The notes: generated from the sequence alone by a model not told the origin. A DNA stretch of 64,000 bases from Candidatus Eiseniibacteriota bacterium (GCA_041946735.1 JBHGAY010000010.1:1-64000), one strand, 5' to 3'. Counted from the first letter of the stretch, positions 4,305 through 60,803 are shown. Made by a program: numbers and translations.

Positions 4305-4877
4305 TTGGAGTCGATGACCGACGAGCAACTGGTGGTCCTGACCCAACAGGGCAACTCCCACGCCTTCAACAGCCTCACAGCTCGTTGGCAAGACAGCGTT
4401 TACCGGTTCGCTTACCGCAATCTCGGGAATCCGGAAGACGCGAGGGACGTCTGCCAGGAGGCCTTGCTGAAGGCCTACCAGAACATCGAGCGACTGCGGG
4501 AAGGGGCGAAGTTCCGCGCCTGGGTGCACCACATTGCCCTGAACCTCTGCCGGGATCGCTACCGCTCCGCCGCCGGGCGCACGGAGACCCTCCCCTACGA
4601 GGAGGAAGGGATCGAGTCGTTCCGGCTGGGAGCGGGAGGCCGGGAGGACGGGGCGGCCAGCCGGGCGGACCGAGCCGGTCTGTTCCACGCGATCGAGAAC
4701 GCGCTGCATGCGCTGCCGATCGAGCAGCGCTCGGCCATTCTTCTCCGCGAGTACCACGGATTCACGTCGGAGGAGATCGCCGATATCACCGGGGTGCCGT
4801 CGGCGACGGTGCGGTCCCGAATCTTCTATGGGCTGAAAGGGATTCGCAAGCGCCTGCGGGAACGAGGAGTCGAGTGA
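4305..4877 (+). CDS. ECF RNA polymerase sigma-70 factor
   Basis: DARDVCQEALLKAY, KFRAWVHHIALNLCRD and LPIEQRSAILLREYHGFTSEEIADITGVPSATVRSRI. GGAGGT precedes TTG 4305; alternative ATG at 4314. Confidence 0.95.
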   Translation: MESMTDEQLVVLTQQGNSHAFNSLTARWQDSVYRFAYRNLGNPEDARDVCQEALLKAYQNIERLREGAKFRAWVHHIALNLCRDRYRSAAGRTETLPYEEEGIESFRLGAGGREDGAASRADRAGLFHAIENALHALPIEQRSAILLREYHGFTSEEIADITGVPSATVRSRIFYGLKGIRKRLRERGVE

Positions 4878-4938: not shown

Positions 4939-5838
4939 ATGGACAGGAACAGAGAAGAGCAGAAGAGACCGCCGGGAAGCCCCCTCGACCCTCGGTGGGA
5001 GAAGCTCGTCGCGCTGCTCTACGGAGAGCTTCCGCCCGAGGAGGAGCAGTCGCTCCGGATGGAGATCGAGAGCGATGCCGCGCTGCGCGCCGAGTGGGAG
5101 GAGATCTCGGGCGCTCGCAGCCTCCTTCAGAGCTGGGAGGTGCCGGAGACGGCAAAGGAGCCGAGCTTCGTGTTCGTGACACCCGAGCCGGCCCGGCGGC
5201 GGAATGGCTCGGCGCGATCGGCCGCTACCGGATGGCGCGAGCGGCTGTCCCGTCTCCTTCCTTCCGCACCCTGGGCCATCGCTGCGACGGCGACGGCCGT
5301 GATGCTCCTCGCGGTGAGCGGAGCGAGGATCGATCGGTATGACGGCGGCTTCGCGCTCCGCTTCGGCGCGCGCCCGCAGGCGGTCCCGACGATGGCGGAG
5401 AGCGCCCAGCCTTCGGCAGGCGCCACGCCCGCCTCGATGCCGTTCGTGCTCCCCGCATCGGGGACGCTCGGGGCGCTGGGAACGAACCCGGTGCAGACCG
5501 TCCGAGGAGACGATTCCCGTTACGTGACGAAGGAGGCGTTCGACAGCTATTCCCAGGGGATGACCCGCACTCTGGTCGCGTTGCTCAACGAGTACACGCT
5601 CCAGCGGGACCGTGAGATGGGCCAGGTCCTCCGGGTGGGGTTCGACGGCTTCTCGCAGAAGCAGTCGACTGACTACGAGGATCTGAGGCAGCGTCTCGAA
5701 GATCTGCGGGTCGCCTTCGCGCAGCAGCAGCTCCAGACGGACACGCAGCTCGAGTATCTCATGCAACACACGGAGCAGGAGGCCCTGCAGCCGGAAAAGG
5801 GAACCCCTCTGGAGGGTTCGGAAGGAGTCGGAAAGTGA
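4939..5838 (+). CDS. Membrane-anchored anti-sigma factor (ASD-like N-terminus lacking zinc ligands)
   Basis: Directly follows the ECF sigma. LVALLYGELPPEE..RAEWEEI anti-sigma-domain pattern, one TM segment (PWAIAATATAVMLLAV) and a helical C-terminal region. Confidence 0.8.
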   Translation: MDRNREEQKRPPGSPLDPRWEKLVALLYGELPPEEEQSLRMEIESDAALRAEWEEISGARSLLQSWEVPETAKEPSFVFVTPEPARRRNGSARSAATGWRERLSRLLPSAPWAIAATATAVMLLAVSGARIDRYDGGFALRFGARPQAVPTMAESAQPSAGATPASMPFVLPASGTLGALGTNPVQTVRGDDSRYVTKEAFDSYSQGMTRTLVALLNEYTLQRDREMGQVLRVGFDGFSQKQSTDYEDLRQRLEDLRVAFAQQQLQTDTQLEYLMQHTEQEALQPEKGTPLEGSEGVGK

Positions 5839-54246: not shown

Positions 54247-56004
54247 ATGCAGCCGCAGCGCAAGCGAAGAGGGAAGGAAAGGATCGGGGCGAATCCTCGC
54301 TCGCTCCTCACGGGTGGGGCGCGCGAGCTCGCGATCGTCGCCGGTCTCGCGATCCTCCTCTACGTGAACCTCCTCGGCAACGCGCTCGTGTTCGATGACG
54401 CGGAGCTGATCCGCAAGAACGAAGCGCTCCACCGCCCGTTCGATCTCGAGGCGATCTTCGGCGAGAGGTACTGGGGGAGCGTGGTCGAGAACGACACGCT
54501 CTACCGGCCGCTGACGAGCCTCACCTTCGCCTGGAACTATGGGCTGAACCGCGCGCTCGGACTGCCGGGCGACGCGCCGGCCGGCTATCACGCCGCCAAC
54601 GTCCTTCTCCACGGGATCGTGAGCGGTCTCGTCCTGCTCCTGCTGCGGCGCGCCGGGATGCGACACGGGGGCGCGCTCGCCGGCGCGCTGCTGTTCGCGT
54701 CGCTGCCGATCCACACCGAGGCGGTCGCGTCGGTCGTCGGCCGCGCCGATCTTCTCGCCGCGCTTTTCGGGATCGTGTTCCTCCTGGCGCACCGCGGACG
54801 GTGGCGCCTGGCGGCCGCGCCAGCGGCGCTCCTTCTCGCTCTCTTCTCCAAGGAGTCCGCGGTCGCCTTCGCCGTGGTGGCCCTCTGGGGCGACCTGCTC
54901 CTCGGCGCTCCGGACCGCGGTCTCGCCCGATACGCTTCCTACGCTGCGGCGATCGCGCTCTGGCTCGCCGTCCGGACTGCCGTCGTTCACGGCACGACGA
55001 TGAAGATCCTTCCGCTCGACAACCCGCTCGTGACCGCCGCGGCAGCCGATCGGATCGCGACGGCTGGCGCCGTCCAGCTCCGCTACCTCCTCCTCGAGCT
55101 GCTGCCGGTCCGGCTCTCCTCCGACTACTCGCTCGCGCAGATCCCGCTCGCCCGCCCGTTCGCTCCCGCCTTCCTCGGCTTCGTGGTCGTCCTCGCTGCC
55201 GCCGCGTTCGCCGTCTGGCGCCTGCGCCGTTCGGCTCCGCTCGGCGCCTTCGCGATCGGTGCGTACGCGATCCTCTTTCTCCCGGTTTCGAACTTCCTCG
55301 TGACGATCGGGACGATCCTCGGGGAGCGGCTCGCCTACGCGCCGTCGATCTTCCTCTGCGCGATTCTGGGGCTGCTCGCCGTCGCGCTCGAGATTCGGAT
55401 CGGCAAGCGGGGGACCGTCGCCCTCGTCGCGACCATCCTCGTCCTCTTCGCGGGCCGCACCGTCGCGCGGAACTCGACGTGGAAGAGCGAGGACTCCTTC
55501 TACCGGACGCAAATCGCGACCGCCCCGAACAGCGCGAAAGCAAACTTCAACTTCGCTCGCTTGCTTCAGGAGCAGGGAAAGTCGGGCGAAGCGATCGAGC
55601 GCTACCGGCGAGCCGTCGCCATCTGGCCGAACTACGTCGACGCCTGGAACAACCTGGGGGCCGTGCTGAAGGACTCCGGGCGGTTCGACGAGGCCGTTCC
55701 GGCGCTGCGCCGGGCGGCGCAGATCCAGCCCAGCTATCCACGGCCCTACTTCAACCTCGGTCAGATCTACCACCTGCGGGGAGACTTCGACGCCGCGATG
55801 GAGATGTACCGCATCGCGGCGCGGCTGAATCCACGCAACGCGGCGATCCTGTCCAACATGGCGGCGATCCACTTCGATCGCGGCGAGTGGGACGAGGCCG
55901 AGGCGCTCTGGCGCCAGGCGCTTGCGATCGACCCTGCCTACGAGAACGCGCGCCGAAACCTGCAGCAGCTTCAGGACGAGCGGAAGCGGACCGCGAGGCC
56001 GTAG
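54247..56004 (+). CDS. TMTC-like GT-C membrane glycosyltransferase with TPR repeats
   Basis: VFDD, YRPLT, YHAANVLLH, HTEAVASVVGRADLL, LFSKE, SSDYS and ERLAYAPS, then about four TPRs. Confidence 0.85.
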   Translation: MQPQRKRRGKERIGANPRSLLTGGARELAIVAGLAILLYVNLLGNALVFDDAELIRKNEALHRPFDLEAIFGERYWGSVVENDTLYRPLTSLTFAWNYGLNRALGLPGDAPAGYHAANVLLHGIVSGLVLLLLRRAGMRHGGALAGALLFASLPIHTEAVASVVGRADLLAALFGIVFLLAHRGRWRLAAAPAALLLALFSKESAVAFAVVALWGDLLLGAPDRGLARYASYAAAIALWLAVRTAVVHGTTMKILPLDNPLVTAAAADRIATAGAVQLRYLLLELLPVRLSSDYSLAQIPLARPFAPAFLGFVVVLAAAAFAVWRLRRSAPLGAFAIGAYAILFLPVSNFLVTIGTILGERLAYAPSIFLCAILGLLAVALEIRIGKRGTVALVATILVLFAGRTVARNSTWKSEDSFYRTQIATAPNSAKANFNFARLLQEQGKSGEAIERYRRAVAIWPNYVDAWNNLGAVLKDSGRFDEAVPALRRAAQIQPSYPRPYFNLGQIYHLRGDFDAAMEMYRIAARLNPRNAAILSNMAAIHFDRGEWDEAEALWRQALAIDPAYENARRNLQQLQDERKRTARP

Positions 56005-56006
56005 CG

Positions 56007-56444
56007 CTACAGCGGGTGAGCCGGCCCACCCGCGATCGTGTCGCCCCCCGCGCTGGTCAGACGTGCGCTTACGGTAGTCAGATAACGCAGGACGAGTGTC
56101 GCTTGACGCGAGTCGAGCTTCGCCCGAGGCGCCATCCTCTCCATCACCGGTTCCCACCGCTCGGTAGCAACCGCCTGCGGGCGGGGGAGCTGGTGGCATC
56201 CGGCGCACTTCAGGAGATAGAGACGGTACCCCTCGTCCATGTCGGCGGCCGTCGCGCCGGGCCATCGCGCCGCCGCCCATGCGTCGTCGAGCGGGGTCGG
56301 CTCGAAGCGGGCCGCGGCGCAGGCGAGGATCGCGGCGGCGGCGACCGCGGCCGCGAGCGGCAGAGCCGCCGGGAACGGCAACCGCGTCGCGGGCGGCAGC
56401 GCCGCCGCGCGGCGCAACCGGACGATGCGGAGCGCCACCCTCAC
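56007..56444 (-). CDS. Small monoheme c-type cytochrome, possibly a lipoprotein
   Basis: GTGA overlap with the upstream stop. Hydrophobic leader ending ILAC. GYRLYLLKCAGCHQL, then WEPVMERM (candidate axial Met). Confidence 0.82.
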   Translation of the reverse strand: MRVALRIVRLRRAAALPPATRLPFPAALPLAAAVAAAAILACAAARFEPTPLDDAWAAARWPGATAADMDEGYRLYLLKCAGCHQLPRPQAVATERWEPVMERMAPRAKLDSRQATLVLRYLTTVSARLTSAGGDTIAGGPAHPL

Positions 56445-57352
56445 AGATCCACCCCGAGCAGCAGCCGCGCTTCGACCCGCTCGTGCCGCGCAAGGTCCAG
56501 GCCGTCCTTCGTCTTGCCCTCGAAAGCGGCGATCTGCGCGAGGACGGTCGCCGTCAGCCAGAACGAATCGGCCGCGTAGCGGAACACCGGCCCCGTGAAG
56601 AGGACGCTGCTTTCCAAGCCCTCCCCGGCGGGGATTTCGTTGACGCTGCGAACCTCGATGCCGCCGGCGACCGCGGGACCGACGAAGCGGCAGATGCCCA
56701 GGTCGCCCTCGAGCGCCGCCTCCCGCTCGGTCTCGGCCGCCGCGTAGTCCCACTCGTGCTCGAAGACCGCGTTGAACGCGCCGTACCAGTCGCCTCTGCG
56801 GGAATCGAGGATCAACTTCCCCTCGATCTCCGACTCCGCTGGACCGAAGGACGGCTCGACGTAGAGCGCGACACCAAGCGGCTGCGCCACCGGATCGGCG
56901 AGTTTGTACTTCCACTCCAGGCTGATTCCGTTCCATTCGAACTCGGAATCGCGCGTTCCTCCCGCGTCCTCTCTCTGGATGGCGGTCCAGTTGAGGTAGA
57001 AGGCGGCTTGCAGCCGGTCCGTCACTCCCGCCTCCAGCTCGAGGCGATGGTCGACACGCGCGTAGAAGCGCTCCCTTCCGAGGCGGAAGGTGGTCCACGG
57101 CTCGAGCTCGACGGCGCCCTCGTTCAGGACGTCGGAGCCGTAGACGTATCCGAAGTTGCGGATCGACGCGCTCGCCGGCTCCGCGCCGATCGTGAGGGTG
57201 AACGTGAGCGCGACTCCGAGCGCAACCACGAGTCCGGGCGCGAGCCCGAGTCCGAGCGCGAGCGCGCGCCCTAGCGCGAAGACGCGCGGGAGCGCGGGGG
57301 CAAGTGGGGAGAAGGCGACACTCGCTCTGATTGGCCTTGCGATCTTTGACAT
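56441..57352 (-). CDS. Putative outer-membrane beta-barrel protein (DUF6662-like)
   Basis: GGTGGAGG-ATG. Long leader, then RNFGYVYGSDVL..ELEPWTT..RLELEAGVTDRLQ..EWKYKL..ALYVE. Alternating amphipathic strands; ends ARLLLGVDL. Confidence 0.75.
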   Translation of the reverse strand: MSKIARPIRASVAFSPLAPALPRVFALGRALALGLGLAPGLVVALGVALTFTLTIGAEPASASIRNFGYVYGSDVLNEGAVELEPWTTFRLGRERFYARVDHRLELEAGVTDRLQAAFYLNWTAIQREDAGGTRDSEFEWNGISLEWKYKLADPVAQPLGVALYVEPSFGPAESEIEGKLILDSRRGDWYGAFNAVFEHEWDYAAAETEREAALEGDLGICRFVGPAVAGGIEVRSVNEIPAGEGLESSVLFTGPVFRYAADSFWLTATVLAQIAAFEGKTKDGLDLARHERVEARLLLGVDL

Positions 57353-57441
57353 CCTCCACCTTCTTTCCTGGTGCCCTCTCGGCGGCAGGCGAAGCTGACG
57401 CGAGGCGGGGGTTCGGGTAAGGGCTCGGGGTGCAGGACCGC

Positions 57442-57477
57442 TGGCCTCTGGCTTCTGGTCTCGGGGCTCCTGGCTTG
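57442..57477 (-). repeat. Five tandem heptamers in the mRNA leader: CAAGCCA-G-GAGCCCC-GAGACCA-GAAGCCA-GAGGCCA
   Basis: Plus-strand TGGCCTC, TGGCTTC, TGGTCTC, GGGGCTC and TGGCTTG at 57442, 57449, 57456, 57463 and 57471. Confidence 0.8.
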
Positions 57478-57526
57478 TCGGCAGCCTCCGGCGAGGGAGG
57501 CGGGATTGGCGACGGAATCGCCGCCC

Positions 57527-57775
57527 CTAGGTCCGGATTCGTGAAGATGCGGGTTCGATGCCGATCTCGATCTCCACCGTGCGCTTGCAGCGGCGGCATT
57601 TGAGTTCGAGGACGGAGCCCCGGCGTATCGCAAGGAGGCTGCCGCAGGCGCAGCGGACATCGCTCCCCGGCAGGGATGCGGACGCCTCTCCGCAGTGGTC
57701 GCAAAGCAGTCTGTTCCCTCGGGAAAGGGGAGCTCGTTTCTGGGGGCTCGTCTTCTCGGTCGGTCCGTCGAACAA
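57527..57775 (-). CDS. Com-family (phage Mu Com-like) zinc-finger protein
   Basis: DVRCACGSLLA..VLELKCRRCKR pattern plus an extra CDHC. GGGAGG lies 7 nt before TTG 57775. Confidence 0.8.
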   Translation of the reverse strand: MFDGPTEKTSPQKRAPLSRGNRLLCDHCGEASASLPGSDVRCACGSLLAIRRGSVLELKCRRCKRTVEIEIGIEPASSRIRT

Positions 57776-57797
57776 CGCCTGTCCTCCCTCTTACCTA

Positions 57798-57814
57798 TTG
57801 AGACAAGGTCTCAA
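57798..57814. promoter_or_regulatory. Perfect palindrome TTGAGAC-AAG-GTCTCAA, Fur-family-box-like
   Basis: 7-3-7 inverted repeat 22 nt upstream of the Com-like start. Shares the TGAGA..TCTCA arms and 15-bp core geometry of TGAGAATnATTCTCA-type boxes. Confidence 0.65.
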
Positions 57815-58156
57815 CACAACGCAACCTGCGGAGACTACCGGCGGCCGGGCCGATCGTCAAGGGACGGACGAAAGGATTTCGCGGAGGATCGCCGCGCCGC
57901 CAGCGCGGAGCCGGCAGTGCGCAGCCGCCCGCGGGCAGCCGCCCGCGGGCGCCGCCAGCGCGCGCGCCGCCAGCGCTCAGTCGGCAGCGCGCAGCCGCCC
58001 ACGCGCTGTCTCCCTGGAGCGCGGCCACGGCGCCGGGCGCTCCCCTGAGGCGTCGCACCGCCGCAATGGGGCCGTGCCGAGTTGAATTGCCATGCGAGAG
58101 GACTAGGCTTGGCAGTGGGCGATCCGACGGGGCGGACGCCCAAAGGGAGGTTCGAA

Positions 58157-58828
58157 ATGCGCGGCACGAGCTTCTCGAGATCTCGGCCGCTCCATGCGGC
58201 CCACACCGCCCGGCTCTTTTCCCTCCTCGTCGCTCTCGGCTCGTTGCCTGCGGGGCAAGCGGCGCTCGCCGAGGAGCAGACCTGGTCCTTCCAGACGGAG
58301 ACATGGCAGCTCGAGATGGGTCGCAAGCCGGTGCCCCCCATCCCGCTCGAAGCTCCGGAAACGATGGAGCAGATGAAGTCCAAGCCGGGCATGCTGGCGT
58401 ACCTCGCGTCCAATGGCAATCTCGTCGTGCAGCGGGTTCGCGACACGCAGGAGACGATGGTCTGGTTCTCCGGGAGAATCGGACCGATCGCAAGCCTGGA
58501 CGAGCATGCCGACGATACGTTCCTCTGGCCGCAGACCCATCGCCTCGTGCTCCTCATCTCCGGAGGCGGAGTCGTCCCGGTCCGCGAGATTCTCGCGATG
58601 AAGGGGTTCACGCTATCGACATTCGCCTGCCAGATCGCGTTCCTCTATCCATCCAAGAACCCGATCGCGTACCGGGACATCATGATGGAATCGCCGAGAG
58701 GGAAGATCTGCTCCATCTACCTCGGATTCCCGAAGACCTTCGATCCGACGAAGGCCGAGGAGATCGATCTCCTTCCCAAGGAGGACGTCGAGAAGAAGGA
58801 CGCCGGGAAAGGGGGTGACGGCCAGTAG
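58157..58828 (+). CDS. Exported hypothetical protein
   Basis: GGGAGG precedes ATG 58157. Signal peptide ending ALA-EE. Coding-like codon usage; no recognised domain. Confidence 0.7.
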   Translation: MRGTSFSRSRPLHAAHTARLFSLLVALGSLPAGQAALAEEQTWSFQTETWQLEMGRKPVPPIPLEAPETMEQMKSKPGMLAYLASNGNLVVQRVRDTQETMVWFSGRIGPIASLDEHADDTFLWPQTHRLVLLISGGGVVPVREILAMKGFTLSTFACQIAFLYPSKNPIAYRDIMMESPRGKICSIYLGFPKTFDPTKAEEIDLLPKEDVEKKDAGKGGDGQ

Positions 58829-58841
58829 CCACCAGCGCGCG

Positions 58842-60803
58842 TCAGCCTGCGCTCGGCGCTCCGGCGGCTTCCGCCTCCGCTTCGCCGGCGAGATGGCTCC
58901 GCTTCTGCTCGATCAGGAGGAACTGGCGGTAGACGTCGCAGCGCCGGGCGAGTTCGTCGTGCGTCCCCTCGTCGACGATCCGGCCGTGGTCGAGCACGAG
59001 GATCCGGTCCGCTCGTCGGATCGTCGCGAGCCGGTGCGAGACGAGGAAGACCGTGACGCCGTGGAACGTTTCGGCGAGGGCGTTCCAGAAGAGGTCCTCG
59101 TGCCGGGCGTCGAGCGACGCCGTGCAGTCGTCCATCAAGAGCAGGTCGGGACGGCCGGCAAGGGCACGGGCGATCGCGATCCGCTGCTTCTGTCCGCCGG
59201 AGACGAGGGCGCCTCGCTGTCCGAGCTGCGTCGCGATCCCGTCCTTCATTCGCTCGAGATCGGGGCCCATCTGCGCCACCTCCAGGCACCGGCGCACCCA
59301 TTCGGGATCCGCGTCGCGACCAAAGGAGACGTTTTCCTGGACGGTCTCGGAGAAGAGGAGGGATTCCTGGGGGACGTAGCCGAGCCGGCCGCGCAGCGCT
59401 CCCCACTCGATCGCGCGGAATGGGCGTCCATCGATCGTGTACTCCCCTTCCTGCGCGGGGAGGAGCCCCGCGAGTAGTCGGAGCAGCGTCGACTTGCCGC
59501 TCGCGACCGGGCCGACGATCGCGATCCGCTCGCCGCGCGAGGCGGCGAAGCACACGCCGTCGAGCGCCGGCGGAAGGTCCGGGCGGTAACGGAAGCCGAC
59601 CGAGGCGAGCTCGATCCGCGCAATGCCCGCTCCGTCGCCGGAGACGTCGCGGGCGGCGATCCCGGCTTCCTCCGGAGCGCCCGGGGCGGCGCTGCGCCGC
59701 GCGCGAGCCGGAAGCGGCTCCGTCCCGTCACGTAGGGTCGAAACCGGGTGGCGAAGCACCTCGACCTCGCGATCGATCGAAACGAACGCCTGCTTCGCCG
59801 TCACGAAGAGGTTCGGCAGGTCCATCATCGGGTAGATCAGCATGTCGAGGTAGACGTAGAACGCGTAGAGCGTCCCGAGCGAGAGCCGGCCGTCGAGCAC
59901 GGCGAGGCCTCCTACCGACAACACGATGACCTGGCCGATCCGGCTCGCGATGTTGTCCATCTCGTGCACGAGCACGACGAGCTTCGCGAGGCGCAGCTGC
60001 AGTCCGATCCGCCGCTGGAGAATCCGCTCGAGGCGGTGGACCTGTCCGGCCTCGCCGTTGAACGCCTTGACGATCCGCACGCCGGACAGCGCCGCTTCGA
60101 TCGTGTCGTTCGTTTGCGAAACCGCCTCCTGCTGCTTGCGATAGGTGTTGCCCAGCTCCTTGCGCGCCACGTAGAAGACCCAGAGCATCAGTGGCACCGG
60201 GATCATGGCAAGGAGCGCCAGCCGCCAGTCGAGCAGCAGCATCGCCGCCACGCAGAAGAGGAACTTCGAGAGCGAATCGACGAAACGGAAAACGCCCGAG
60301 CAGCCGAACCAGGCGATGCGCGGGTACTCCGCGATGTCGTCGGTCAGCCGCGTCACGAGGTCGCCCGTGCGGAAGCGGGAGAAGAAGGTGAAGTCCTTCT
60401 CCAGGATCGATCCGAAGACGCGCTCGCGAACCCCCTTCTCGAGCTTGAGGTTCATCCAGGCTCGGAAGCCGGGGTAGAAGCCGGCGATCGTCCGTCCGAT
60501 CGCGATCAGCCCCAGGATCCCTAGGAGTCGGTAGAGGGTCGCGTTCTCCGGGCGCGAGGTCGAGAGCGACGCGTAGACTCCGTCGATCACCTTGCGAAAG
60601 ACGAGCGGGTAAGCGATCGCGACGGCGCTCGAGACGAGCGTGAAGAAGAAGAGGAAGACGAGGAAGCGCAGATGCGGCTTCCAGAATGCGTGCAGCCAGG
60701 CGATGCGCTGCCGTGTCGTGAGGAGAGGCGTCTTCTCCTTCTCCGGCCCGTCCGTCCGGTCGTCCCGCTCCGCGGGGCCGGGGTGCGCGTGCGAGGCGCT
60801 CAT
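58842..60803 (-). CDS. ABC exporter half-transporter (TMD-NBD) with a degenerate Walker B
   Basis: RTGDLVTRLTDD, GPVASGKST, VSGGQKQR and LLMDDCTASLD. Confidence 0.93.
   Translation of the reverse strand: MSASHAHPGPAERDDRTDGPEKEKTPLLTTRQRIAWLHAFWKPHLRFLVFLFFFTLVSSAVAIAYPLVFRKVIDGVYASLSTSRPENATLYRLLGILGLIAIGRTIAGFYPGFRAWMNLKLEKGVRERVFGSILEKDFTFFSRFRTGDLVTRLTDDIAEYPRIAWFGCSGVFRFVDSLSKFLFCVAAMLLLDWRLALLAMIPVPLMLWVFYVARKELGNTYRKQQEAVSQTNDTIEAALSGVRIVKAFNGEAGQVHRLERILQRRIGLQLRLAKLVVLVHEMDNIASRIGQVIVLSVGGLAVLDGRLSLGTLYAFYVYLDMLIYPMMDLPNLFVTAKQAFVSIDREVEVLRHPVSTLRDGTEPLPARARRSAAPGAPEEAGIAARDVSGDGAGIARIELASVGFRYRPDLPPALDGVCFAASRGERIAIVGPVASGKSTLLRLLAGLLPAQEGEYTIDGRPFRAIEWGALRGRLGYVPQESLLFSETVQENVSFGRDADPEWVRRCLEVAQMGPDLERMKDGIATQLGQRGALVSGGQKQRIAIARALAGRPDLLLMDDCTASLDARHEDLFWNALAETFHGVTVFLVSHRLATIRRADRILVLDHGRIVDEGTHDELARRCDVYRQFLLIEQKRSHLAGEAEAEAAGAPSAG

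Follow-up and report, generated by a model that had tools for sequence, protein, structure and literature searches.

A conserved, repeat-built leader element behind Com-like zinc-ribbon genes is a candidate RNA target and carries extra heptamers in one bacterial leader

Leader-RNA-binding proteins such as TRAP, which recognizes GAG/UAG repeats, and the antiterminators of the BglG/SacY type choose between a fold that terminates the transcript or blocks its Shine-Dalgarno sequence and a fold that leaves it open, and the sites of the TRAP type are arrays of short repeats. The textbook example of an mRNA-remodelling translational activator is Com of phage Mu, which acts on the mom message, and the system has been treated as a phage curiosity. 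The Mu record places the Com site just upstream of the mom start. According to those passages of the SELEX study of the Com zinc finger that concern the site (PMC6483171), the selected RNAs carried GAG(N)2CC, mostly twice (868 of 999 sequences), flanking a stem of 3-4 nt of variable sequence; Com recognizes CC(N)2-3GAG, in which GA is crucial, RNA with two motifs was bound better than RNA with a single motif, and the natural site adjoins the translation-inhibition structure of mom. Genes resembling com have also been noted before the lectin-like bacteriocin (llpA) genes of Pseudomonas, where the passage concerned calls their regulatory role unexplored (PMC6240691).

We analysed the leader of a locus in a 64-kb stretch of DNA (the window), part of a 4.9-Mb genome, in which a mini-gene resembling com precedes a gene of the DUF6662 family (Table 1). 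Our data point to a chromosomal Com relative with its own conserved RNA site. The spacer between the two genes (57353-57526) displays no codon-position GC bias, whereas both flanking genes do, and it is rich in C (69 C vs 55 G), the stretch 57380-57446 having ~20 C vs 8-9 G per 40 nt. Upstream of the mini-gene, the promoter-like sequence has the arrangement TTGACGATC ... TAG.GT that is also found upstream of the DUF6662 orthologue in the relative G004; a sigma-70 consensus scan called no promoter in 56300-58300, TTGACG-17-TAGTCT included. The palindrome that follows could be an operator or a 5' RNA hairpin, and its block at 57798-57814 is kept at the G004 orthologue. Palindromes of the form TGAGAC-N3-4-GTCTCA likewise lie between promoter and first gene in L009 (~1336-1352) and L010 (~494-510), and the G037 orthologue is preceded by TGAGGC-N5-GCCTCA, altered on both arms and adjoining a gene that, read by eye from the sequence, resembles a putative DtxR/FeoA-type regulator. 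Upstream of other Com-like genes, GAG(A/G)C-N3-7-G(T/C)CTC occurred somewhere in 12 of 78 loci, at no consistent position. No Fur box was found at the locus.

The 303-aa DUF6662 protein is a probable secreted or outer-membrane protein, to judge by its predicted N-terminus. Tandem repeats are found on either side of the leader: an in-frame 18-nt repeat of 4.1 copies (57206-57279, TRF) lies within the hydrophobic N-terminal region and adds length to the presumed signal peptide, and a 14-nt unit, GCCGCCAGCGCGCA, is repeated 7.4 times at 57896-57999, just upstream of the promoter and 420 nt upstream of the heptamers (TRF score 115). The frame behind the DUF6662 gene (56010-56429, minus strand) ends in a CxxCH-containing stretch with a sub-threshold match to dihaem cytochrome c (PF09626, E 0.0013, 20.2 bits vs a cutoff of 22.2) and may be a third gene of the operon; a 565-aa ORF listed over the same positions was rejected as a high-GC artefact.

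Table 1. Positions of the features described at the Com-like/DUF6662 locus, counted from the first letter of the window.
Feature	Coordinates	Strand	Evidence
Promoter-like TTGACG (57860-57855), 17 nt, TAGTCT (57837-57832)	57832-57860	minus	read from sequence; putative
Palindrome TTGAGAC-CTT-GTCTCAA, 17 nt, between promoter and Com-like gene	57798-57814	minus	read from sequence
Com-like zinc-ribbon gene, 82 aa, TTG start behind GGGAGGA	57527-57775	minus	ORF call
Leader/spacer, 174 nt, exactly from Com-like stop to DUF6662 start	57353-57526	minus	ORF bounds
Heptamer array: CAAGCCA-G, then four tandem GARNCCN units	57442-57477	minus	sequence, TRF, pattern count
Extra 5' units without counterpart in other loci	57457-57473	minus	strict unit count
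Conserved element (match to model R1)	57416-57456	minus	45.3 bits, E 3.3e-6; alignment A2 of 53 copies
Apical hairpin: GGT (57439-57437) pairs ACC (57431-57429), loop CCTGC	57429-57439	minus	stem covariation
Shine-Dalgarno GGTGGAGG (57360-57353) directly before ATG (57352-57350) of DUF6662 gene	57350-57360	minus	read from sequence
DUF6662 gene, 303 aa, long hydrophobic N-terminus	56441-57352	minus	PF20367, E 1.5e-7, 31.6 bits, cutoff 27

The mini-gene product has 31 metagenomic homologues, eight of which are named 'phage FluMu protein Com' by JGI. The core common to them is RCACG...LELKCRRCKR, invariant in the part RCACG...ELKCRRCKR, and the invariant cysteines form C42-x-C44 and C60-xx-C63, the first pair being CxC and not CxxC as in Mu Com; most relatives, not all, have an additional N-terminal CxxC. 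Aligning the family profile A1 with Mu Com by hhalign gave a probability of 87.3% (E 3.8e-6) over 27 columns, in which C44, C60 and C63 fall on Mu C9, C26 and C29. Among the PHROGs families, phrog_6417 ('translational regulator') is matched by 19 of 32 relatives and phrog_13819 ('gpCom') by 10 of 32, the window's own protein matching neither at E 0.01 or better. Searching the latter against Pfam and NCBIfam yielded no match above threshold, only sub-threshold zinc-ribbon noise; PF10122 (Zn_ribbon_Com) did not match it at E up to 1 and matched a single one of the 32 relatives, below the cutoff (E 0.004), and a PDB sequence search with the family profile returned weak, unrelated zinc ribbons and no Com entry. 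The protein is called Com-like on the strength of the profile comparison and of its relatives. The gene is present in a single copy in its own genome, and the family is found at 267 places in the species-representative genome set (genome_contigs). We examined 80 of these 267 loci, which come from Sorangium isolates and from MAGs labelled Myxococcota, Nitrospirota, Rokubacteria/Methylomirabilota, Binatia, Acidobacteriota, Elusimicrobiota and others.

The spacers behind the Com-like genes have in common a block of ~27 nt with the consensus CAGCGGCCAGCGGTC-nn-GAGCCCAGAGCCC (alignment A2, 53 copies), which is built of two CC-N1-2-G(A/C)G units at 7-nt spacing, a 3-bp stem with a loop of 5-9 nt, another unit and CCC, the blocks GGCC.G.G and CC.G.GC being invariant. 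The copy of the window, GGCCAGCGGTCCTGCACCCCGAGCCC at 57446-57421, has the core GGCC-A-GCG-GTC...ACC-CC-GAG-CCC and comprises the array's last heptamer, the 13 nt that follow it and a further GAGCCC. It presents all the parts by which we define the element, namely GGCC-M-GMG, a covarying 3-bp stem with its loop (here GGT:ACC) and CC-M-GMG-CCC, on the sense strand and less than ~160 nt after the Com-like gene; the element starts 71 nt after the stop codon. The covariance model R1 has this element as its single match in the 4.9-Mb genome and a scan of the 64-kb window gave only 57416-57456, at a score of 45.3 bits that is partly by construction, the window's copy being in the seed alignment.

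The apical stem stays paired through GGT:ACC, GAC:GTC, GAT:ATC, GGC:GCC and GGA:TCC. Among the aligned copies, 98.1% of cells are paired and 39 cells are changed on both sides, a level that none of 500 shuffles attained and that slid controls did not approach (57% at most); these figures overstate the case, since the sequences compared are related, and the seed copies were picked by a regular expression, written after the spacers had been seen, that restricts three of the six stem columns. In 12 model-aligned copies, 10 of which lay outside the seed alignment, the stem was 100% paired. RNAalifold adds outer GGC:GCC pairs, which are almost invariant and for that reason say little, the stem itself being only 3 bp; one compensatory change in the outer helix was found among further copies. 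Rfam gave no relevant match at E up to 1 in 56000-59000 of the window and none at E up to 0.1 in eight other element-bearing loci, and full-text literature searches on the element returned only work on Mu and the review PMC6240691, not the element itself. Two other identities were considered and rejected, a sigma-54 or ECF promoter by eye, as the spacing from GG to GC is wrong by one position and the 'GAAC' positions show the covariation of a stem, and a REP-like repeat because the element is single copy in the genome.

The element accompanies the Com-like gene rather than the cargo, as we call the gene downstream. Matches to R1 lie 8-163 nt (median 63) behind the Com-like ORF, on the same strand, in 54 of the 80 loci, nine of these 54 being outside the seed alignment, and only ~6 matches occur elsewhere in the 404 kb searched on both strands. 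The initial annotation, which saw in the leader behind the Com-like gene a repeat-built target, was thus right in that a conserved element of GAG/GCG and CC parts is present there across phyla. No element was detected in the other 26 loci, which include all eight from Sorangium. In the window's own genome the only Com-like gene lies next to the only element, as it does in four of five other whole genomes; the fifth contains two of the genes and four of the elements in a stretch of 11 kb. In this fifth genome the copies in L078 are at 2741-2781, 4664-4704 and 5109-5149 and the cluster (G044:C4, 217031-228401) includes a cupredoxin gene, one element copy standing ~8.7 kb from the nearest Com-like gene. 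None of seven DUF6662 loci that lack a Com-like gene (L009-L015) has the element. The closest DUF6662 orthologue, in G004 (63% identity), keeps promoter and palindrome and has neither mini-gene nor element, and no R1 match at E 0.01 or better was found in 40 relatives of the window's genome under strict filters, with 150 candidates scored per genome. The module is thus sporadic in this lineage and looks as if it had been inserted between promoter and cargo.

The minus strand at 57477-57442 reads CAAGCCA-G-GAGCCCC-GAGACCA-GAAGCCA-GAGGCCA, and these heptamers, the further GAGCCC (57426-57421), the Shine-Dalgarno sequence and two pyrimidine stretches are all present exactly where the initial annotation had placed them. 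As a repeat the array is modest: TRF gives it a weak score of 31 (57441-57474, period 7, 4.7 copies, 70% matches). Three or more GARNCCN units in tandem occur only once on both strands of the 4.9-Mb genome, in this very array, the pattern having been defined after the array was seen. Period-7 arrays of equal quality (at least 16/21 self-matches) number 71 genome-wide vs ~34 expected, and 35 in the first 2 Mb vs 14 in a 2-Mb first-order Markov simulation, and a bare period-7 repeat is not significant at the scale of the 64-kb window. The array is more than chance because of homology, its last unit and the next 20 nt matching the model of the other Com-like leaders.

Read in the frame of the family, the array consists of CC-N1-2-GRR units at 57473-57467, 57466-57460, 57458-57453, 57451-57446 and 57444-57439. 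By a strict count the window has four units 5' of the stem, and the other loci have one (26 loci), two (23 loci) or three (5 loci), so that the expansion to four is unique to the window among 55 copies. The proposal of an RNA target array therefore holds in part: covariance modelling of homologous leaders recovered the last heptamer, the hairpin and the further GAGCCC as conserved, not the array as a whole. Because the three or four heptamers upstream of these parts are found in none of the other 54 loci, conservation cannot vouch for a multivalent array. These extra heptamers are probably lineage-specific slippage products, copies of the first unit of the element, and might serve as additional binding sites. 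The array is unchanged in a near-identical strain present in X2, an independent metagenome run. The Com-like protein was matched in only four of the 40 relatives of the window's genome, mostly weakly, and none of the 40 has an R1 match, so there is no close relative by which the expansion could be dated. A simple satellite, taken as many near-identical tandem copies, often beside other heptamer arrays and with no tie to a particular gene, is not what the array represents, its four to five units all differing from one another.

Such satellites do exist elsewhere. A metagenome scan for at least three tandem units produced only pure (GGCCAGA)n satellites among the matches listed, with 4 to >10 perfect copies, and none of 80 fetched satellite loci (L161-L240) had a Com-like gene or a full element. 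These satellites are common in metagenome contigs and often abut other heptamer arrays, of GAGTCAC or GATAACT units for example. A scan of viral sequences with the bipartite pattern gave 63 loci, mostly low-scoring matches inside coding DNA, none with an A1-type gene within 600 nt. Three identical viral contigs (L153, 591-631; L117 and L136) match the element at 45.3 bits with three perfect and three degenerate units in front of a phage head-protein gene (phrog_240), and their six units show that slippage does expand the unit of the element. No A1-type gene was detected in these three contig fragments. Before the viral element lies a 65-aa ORF containing C-x5-H and C-x-C, in which hhalign detected no homology to the Com-like family (probability 0.3%).

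The distance from the element to the start codon of the cargo ranges from 16 to ~170 nt, and the element is found next to two kinds of expression platform. In eight loci (L044, L048, L052, L063, L072, L074, L078 and L087) a terminator-like hairpin, with a T-run behind it, has the start of its 5' arm in the last unit of the element, the first copy in L086 being, by eye, a ninth case. Elsewhere complementarity to the ribosome-binding site is seen: duplexes of the element with the site of its own locus averaged -18.2 kcal/mol vs -16.6 in cross-locus pairings (start codons from GC3-validated frames, n = 46), with a permutation p of 0.0004 whose significance the relatedness of the sequences overstates. 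In a myxobacterial subgroup GCGTCC of the element faces GGACGC directly before the ATG. In the window, bases 57437-57429 (TCCTGCACC) are complementary to the Shine-Dalgarno sequence of the DUF6662 gene in eight of nine positions and are paired with it in the MFE fold; the Shine-Dalgarno sequence is predicted to be mostly paired (unpaired probability 0.20). The anti-Shine-Dalgarno fit of the window is not specific, as its duplex ranks only 21st of 46 among the cross-locus pairings.

The apex of the element is the best anti-Shine-Dalgarno 14-mer of the leader (-16.2 kcal/mol), and the two pyrimidine stretches that had first been put forward as partners are weaker, at -13.0 and -11.9 kcal/mol. 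As to the broader suggestion of gated ribosome access, in the family the element tends to pair with the ribosome-binding site or to sit in a terminator arm; the leader of our locus as a whole folds no more stably than shuffled sequences (z +0.98 and +0.75).

The cargo, surveyed by Pfam on 63 downstream proteins and by clustering, consists mostly of outer-membrane proteins. The largest group is a family of 19 members of ~400-530 aa, mostly without a Pfam match, that looks porin-like from its hydrophobic N-terminal stretch, aromatic C-terminus and two weak porin matches; all 19 loci have the element. DUF6662 proteins are the cargo of six loci including the window, all with the element, and the order of Com-like gene, element and DUF6662 homologue recurs in L042, L048, L072, L076 and L084. 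Further cargo comprises TonB-dependent receptors, porins of the OprB, Porin_O_P and BBP2 families, FeoA, ExbB, cupredoxin, multicopper oxidase and PLP decarboxylases. In four myxobacterial loci (L019, L022, L067 and L068) the first gene after the element encodes another small protein with cysteines (90-101 aa), for which Pfam gave no match, and a larger gene comes next.

Based on these data we lean, on balance, towards a protein-RNA switch in which the leader holds the cognate RNA site of the Com-like protein. As long as no protein is bound to the mRNA, the apex UCCUGCACC of the element would pair with GGUGGAGGA, the Shine-Dalgarno sequence of the DUF6662 gene, and close the ribosome-binding site, whereas the Com-like protein, made from the same transcript, would bind the element in its hairpin form and hold the anti-Shine-Dalgarno sequence away, freeing the ribosome-binding site for translation of the outer-membrane gene, a logic like that of Com on mom. 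In relatives of lower GC, where the element lies in the 5' arm of an intrinsic terminator, binding of the protein would give read-through. The likeness to the Com target suggested in the initial annotation is corroborated by the SELEX motif GAG(N)2CC, which is bipartite and flanks a stem of 3-4 nt in the portion of PMC6483171 that describes it, and the difference in spacing that the same annotation pointed out is confirmed, 7 nt here vs 9-10 nt in that motif. A more far-reaching reading, which we consider speculative and rather improbable, is that Com-like protein and heptamer-unit element form a widespread and undescribed switch that controls outer-membrane and metal-uptake genes post-transcriptionally in several phyla (Myxococcota, Nitrospirota, Methylomirabilota, Binatia, Acidobacteriota and others), with the number of units as a gain control tunable by slippage; more units would recruit more copies of the protein and thereby re-set the threshold of the switch, this lineage having ~7 units and one phage group six.

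Could the element work without the Com-like protein? It might be a cis-acting RNA, a terminator or anti-Shine-Dalgarno module whose reader would be Rho, an RNase, a small RNA or a metal ion; in that case the cysteine-rich mini-protein could be a co-regulated metal-binding or metal-sensing product of a possibly metal-controlled operon. The terminator arms that overlap the element, the metal and uptake cargo (TonB-dependent receptors, FeoA, ExbB, cupredoxin and multicopper oxidase), the operator-like palindrome before the operon together with the putative DtxR/FeoA-type gene beside the G037 orthologue, and the C-rich, G-poor stretch after the element, which is like Rho loading sites, would all suit such a module. 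We regard it as unlikely, since the element tracks the Com-like gene and not the cargo (it is absent from the seven DUF6662 loci that lack the gene), gene and element stand once each and side by side in the window's genome and in four of five other whole genomes, and the units resemble the measured target of a homologous protein. It is very unlikely, in our estimate, that the element acts as DNA, as a direct-repeat operator or a promoter of the downstream gene to which a transcription factor, perhaps even the zinc-ribbon protein, would bind. The element is strongly conserved, GGCC.G.G and CC.G.GC being invariant blocks, and is a direct repeat of half-sites, and annotation pipelines sometimes name Com relatives DNA-binding regulators; yet the orientation of the element is strictly that of the transcript, its variable positions keep pairing complementarity rather than sequence, of which a DNA site has no need, the 7-nt spacing of the units does not fit the helical repeat, no -10-like block is conserved at a fixed distance while that to the start codon varies as widely as described above, and the overlap with terminator stems points to a role as RNA.

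The extra heptamers call for a judgement of their own, for they could be neutral, a tandem duplication made by slippage in a repeat-prone locus that abuts the conserved element and has no effect on binding or expression. That these units are unique to the window's copy, that the 14-mer (x7.4) and the 18-mer (x4.1, inside the next gene) are close by, that period-7 arrays reach only ~2x the Markov prediction, that the three identical viral contigs display a fresh expansion to three perfect copies of the unit, and that pure (GGCCAGA)n satellites occur widely all agree with this reading. The points on the other side are not strong: the extra units have diverged from each other and yet all keep CC and G-R-R in phase, their predicted unpaired probability exceeds the average of the leader (0.47 vs 0.41), and two-motif RNA was the better ligand in the SELEX work, as far as the relevant passages of PMC6483171 report. 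We therefore take neutrality of the extra heptamers to be a serious possibility, somewhat short of probable.

The switch that we favour for the conserved element itself accounts for the odd heptamers of the window as an expanded copy of that element. Should binding be confirmed, it would be a new module by which a protein and its RNA site regulate cell-envelope and uptake genes of little-studied phyla, and DUF6662 would gain a regulatory context as well. The pair is also compact enough for study and engineering, comprising a region of 27 residues that aligns with the Mu Com zinc finger and a site of ~30 nt.

Among the described systems, the TRAP and BglG/SacY-type proteins have folds unrelated to that of the Com-like protein. 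The com-like mini-genes of Pseudomonas resemble ours in being chromosomal and immediately before a non-phage cargo gene, the llpA genes; unlike the window's protein their products are true PF10122 members, taxa and cargo are different, and the passage of PMC6240691 that treats them describes no RNA element such as the one found here. The closest counterpart is Com/mom of phage Mu. In both, a small four-cysteine zinc protein (putative here) is encoded directly upstream of the controlled gene on what would be one transcript, an RNA site (a candidate here) lies between the two genes beside a structure that masks the ribosome-binding site, this RNA site consists of GAG and CC elements arranged about a very short stem, and the protein cores can be aligned. 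The differences are in the details: our locus is chromosomal and not phage-borne, the cargo is an outer-membrane or uptake protein instead of a DNA-modification enzyme, and the site is in the intergenic spacer after the stop codon, whereas that of Mu is inside the com reading frame. The units are 7 nt apart and not 9-10 nt, the GMG units flank the stem and in Mu sit in its loop, the translation-inhibition structure is replaced by a terminator in some lineages, and the protein of the window, which unlike Mu Com has no PF10122 match, begins its zinc ribbon with a CxC knuckle.
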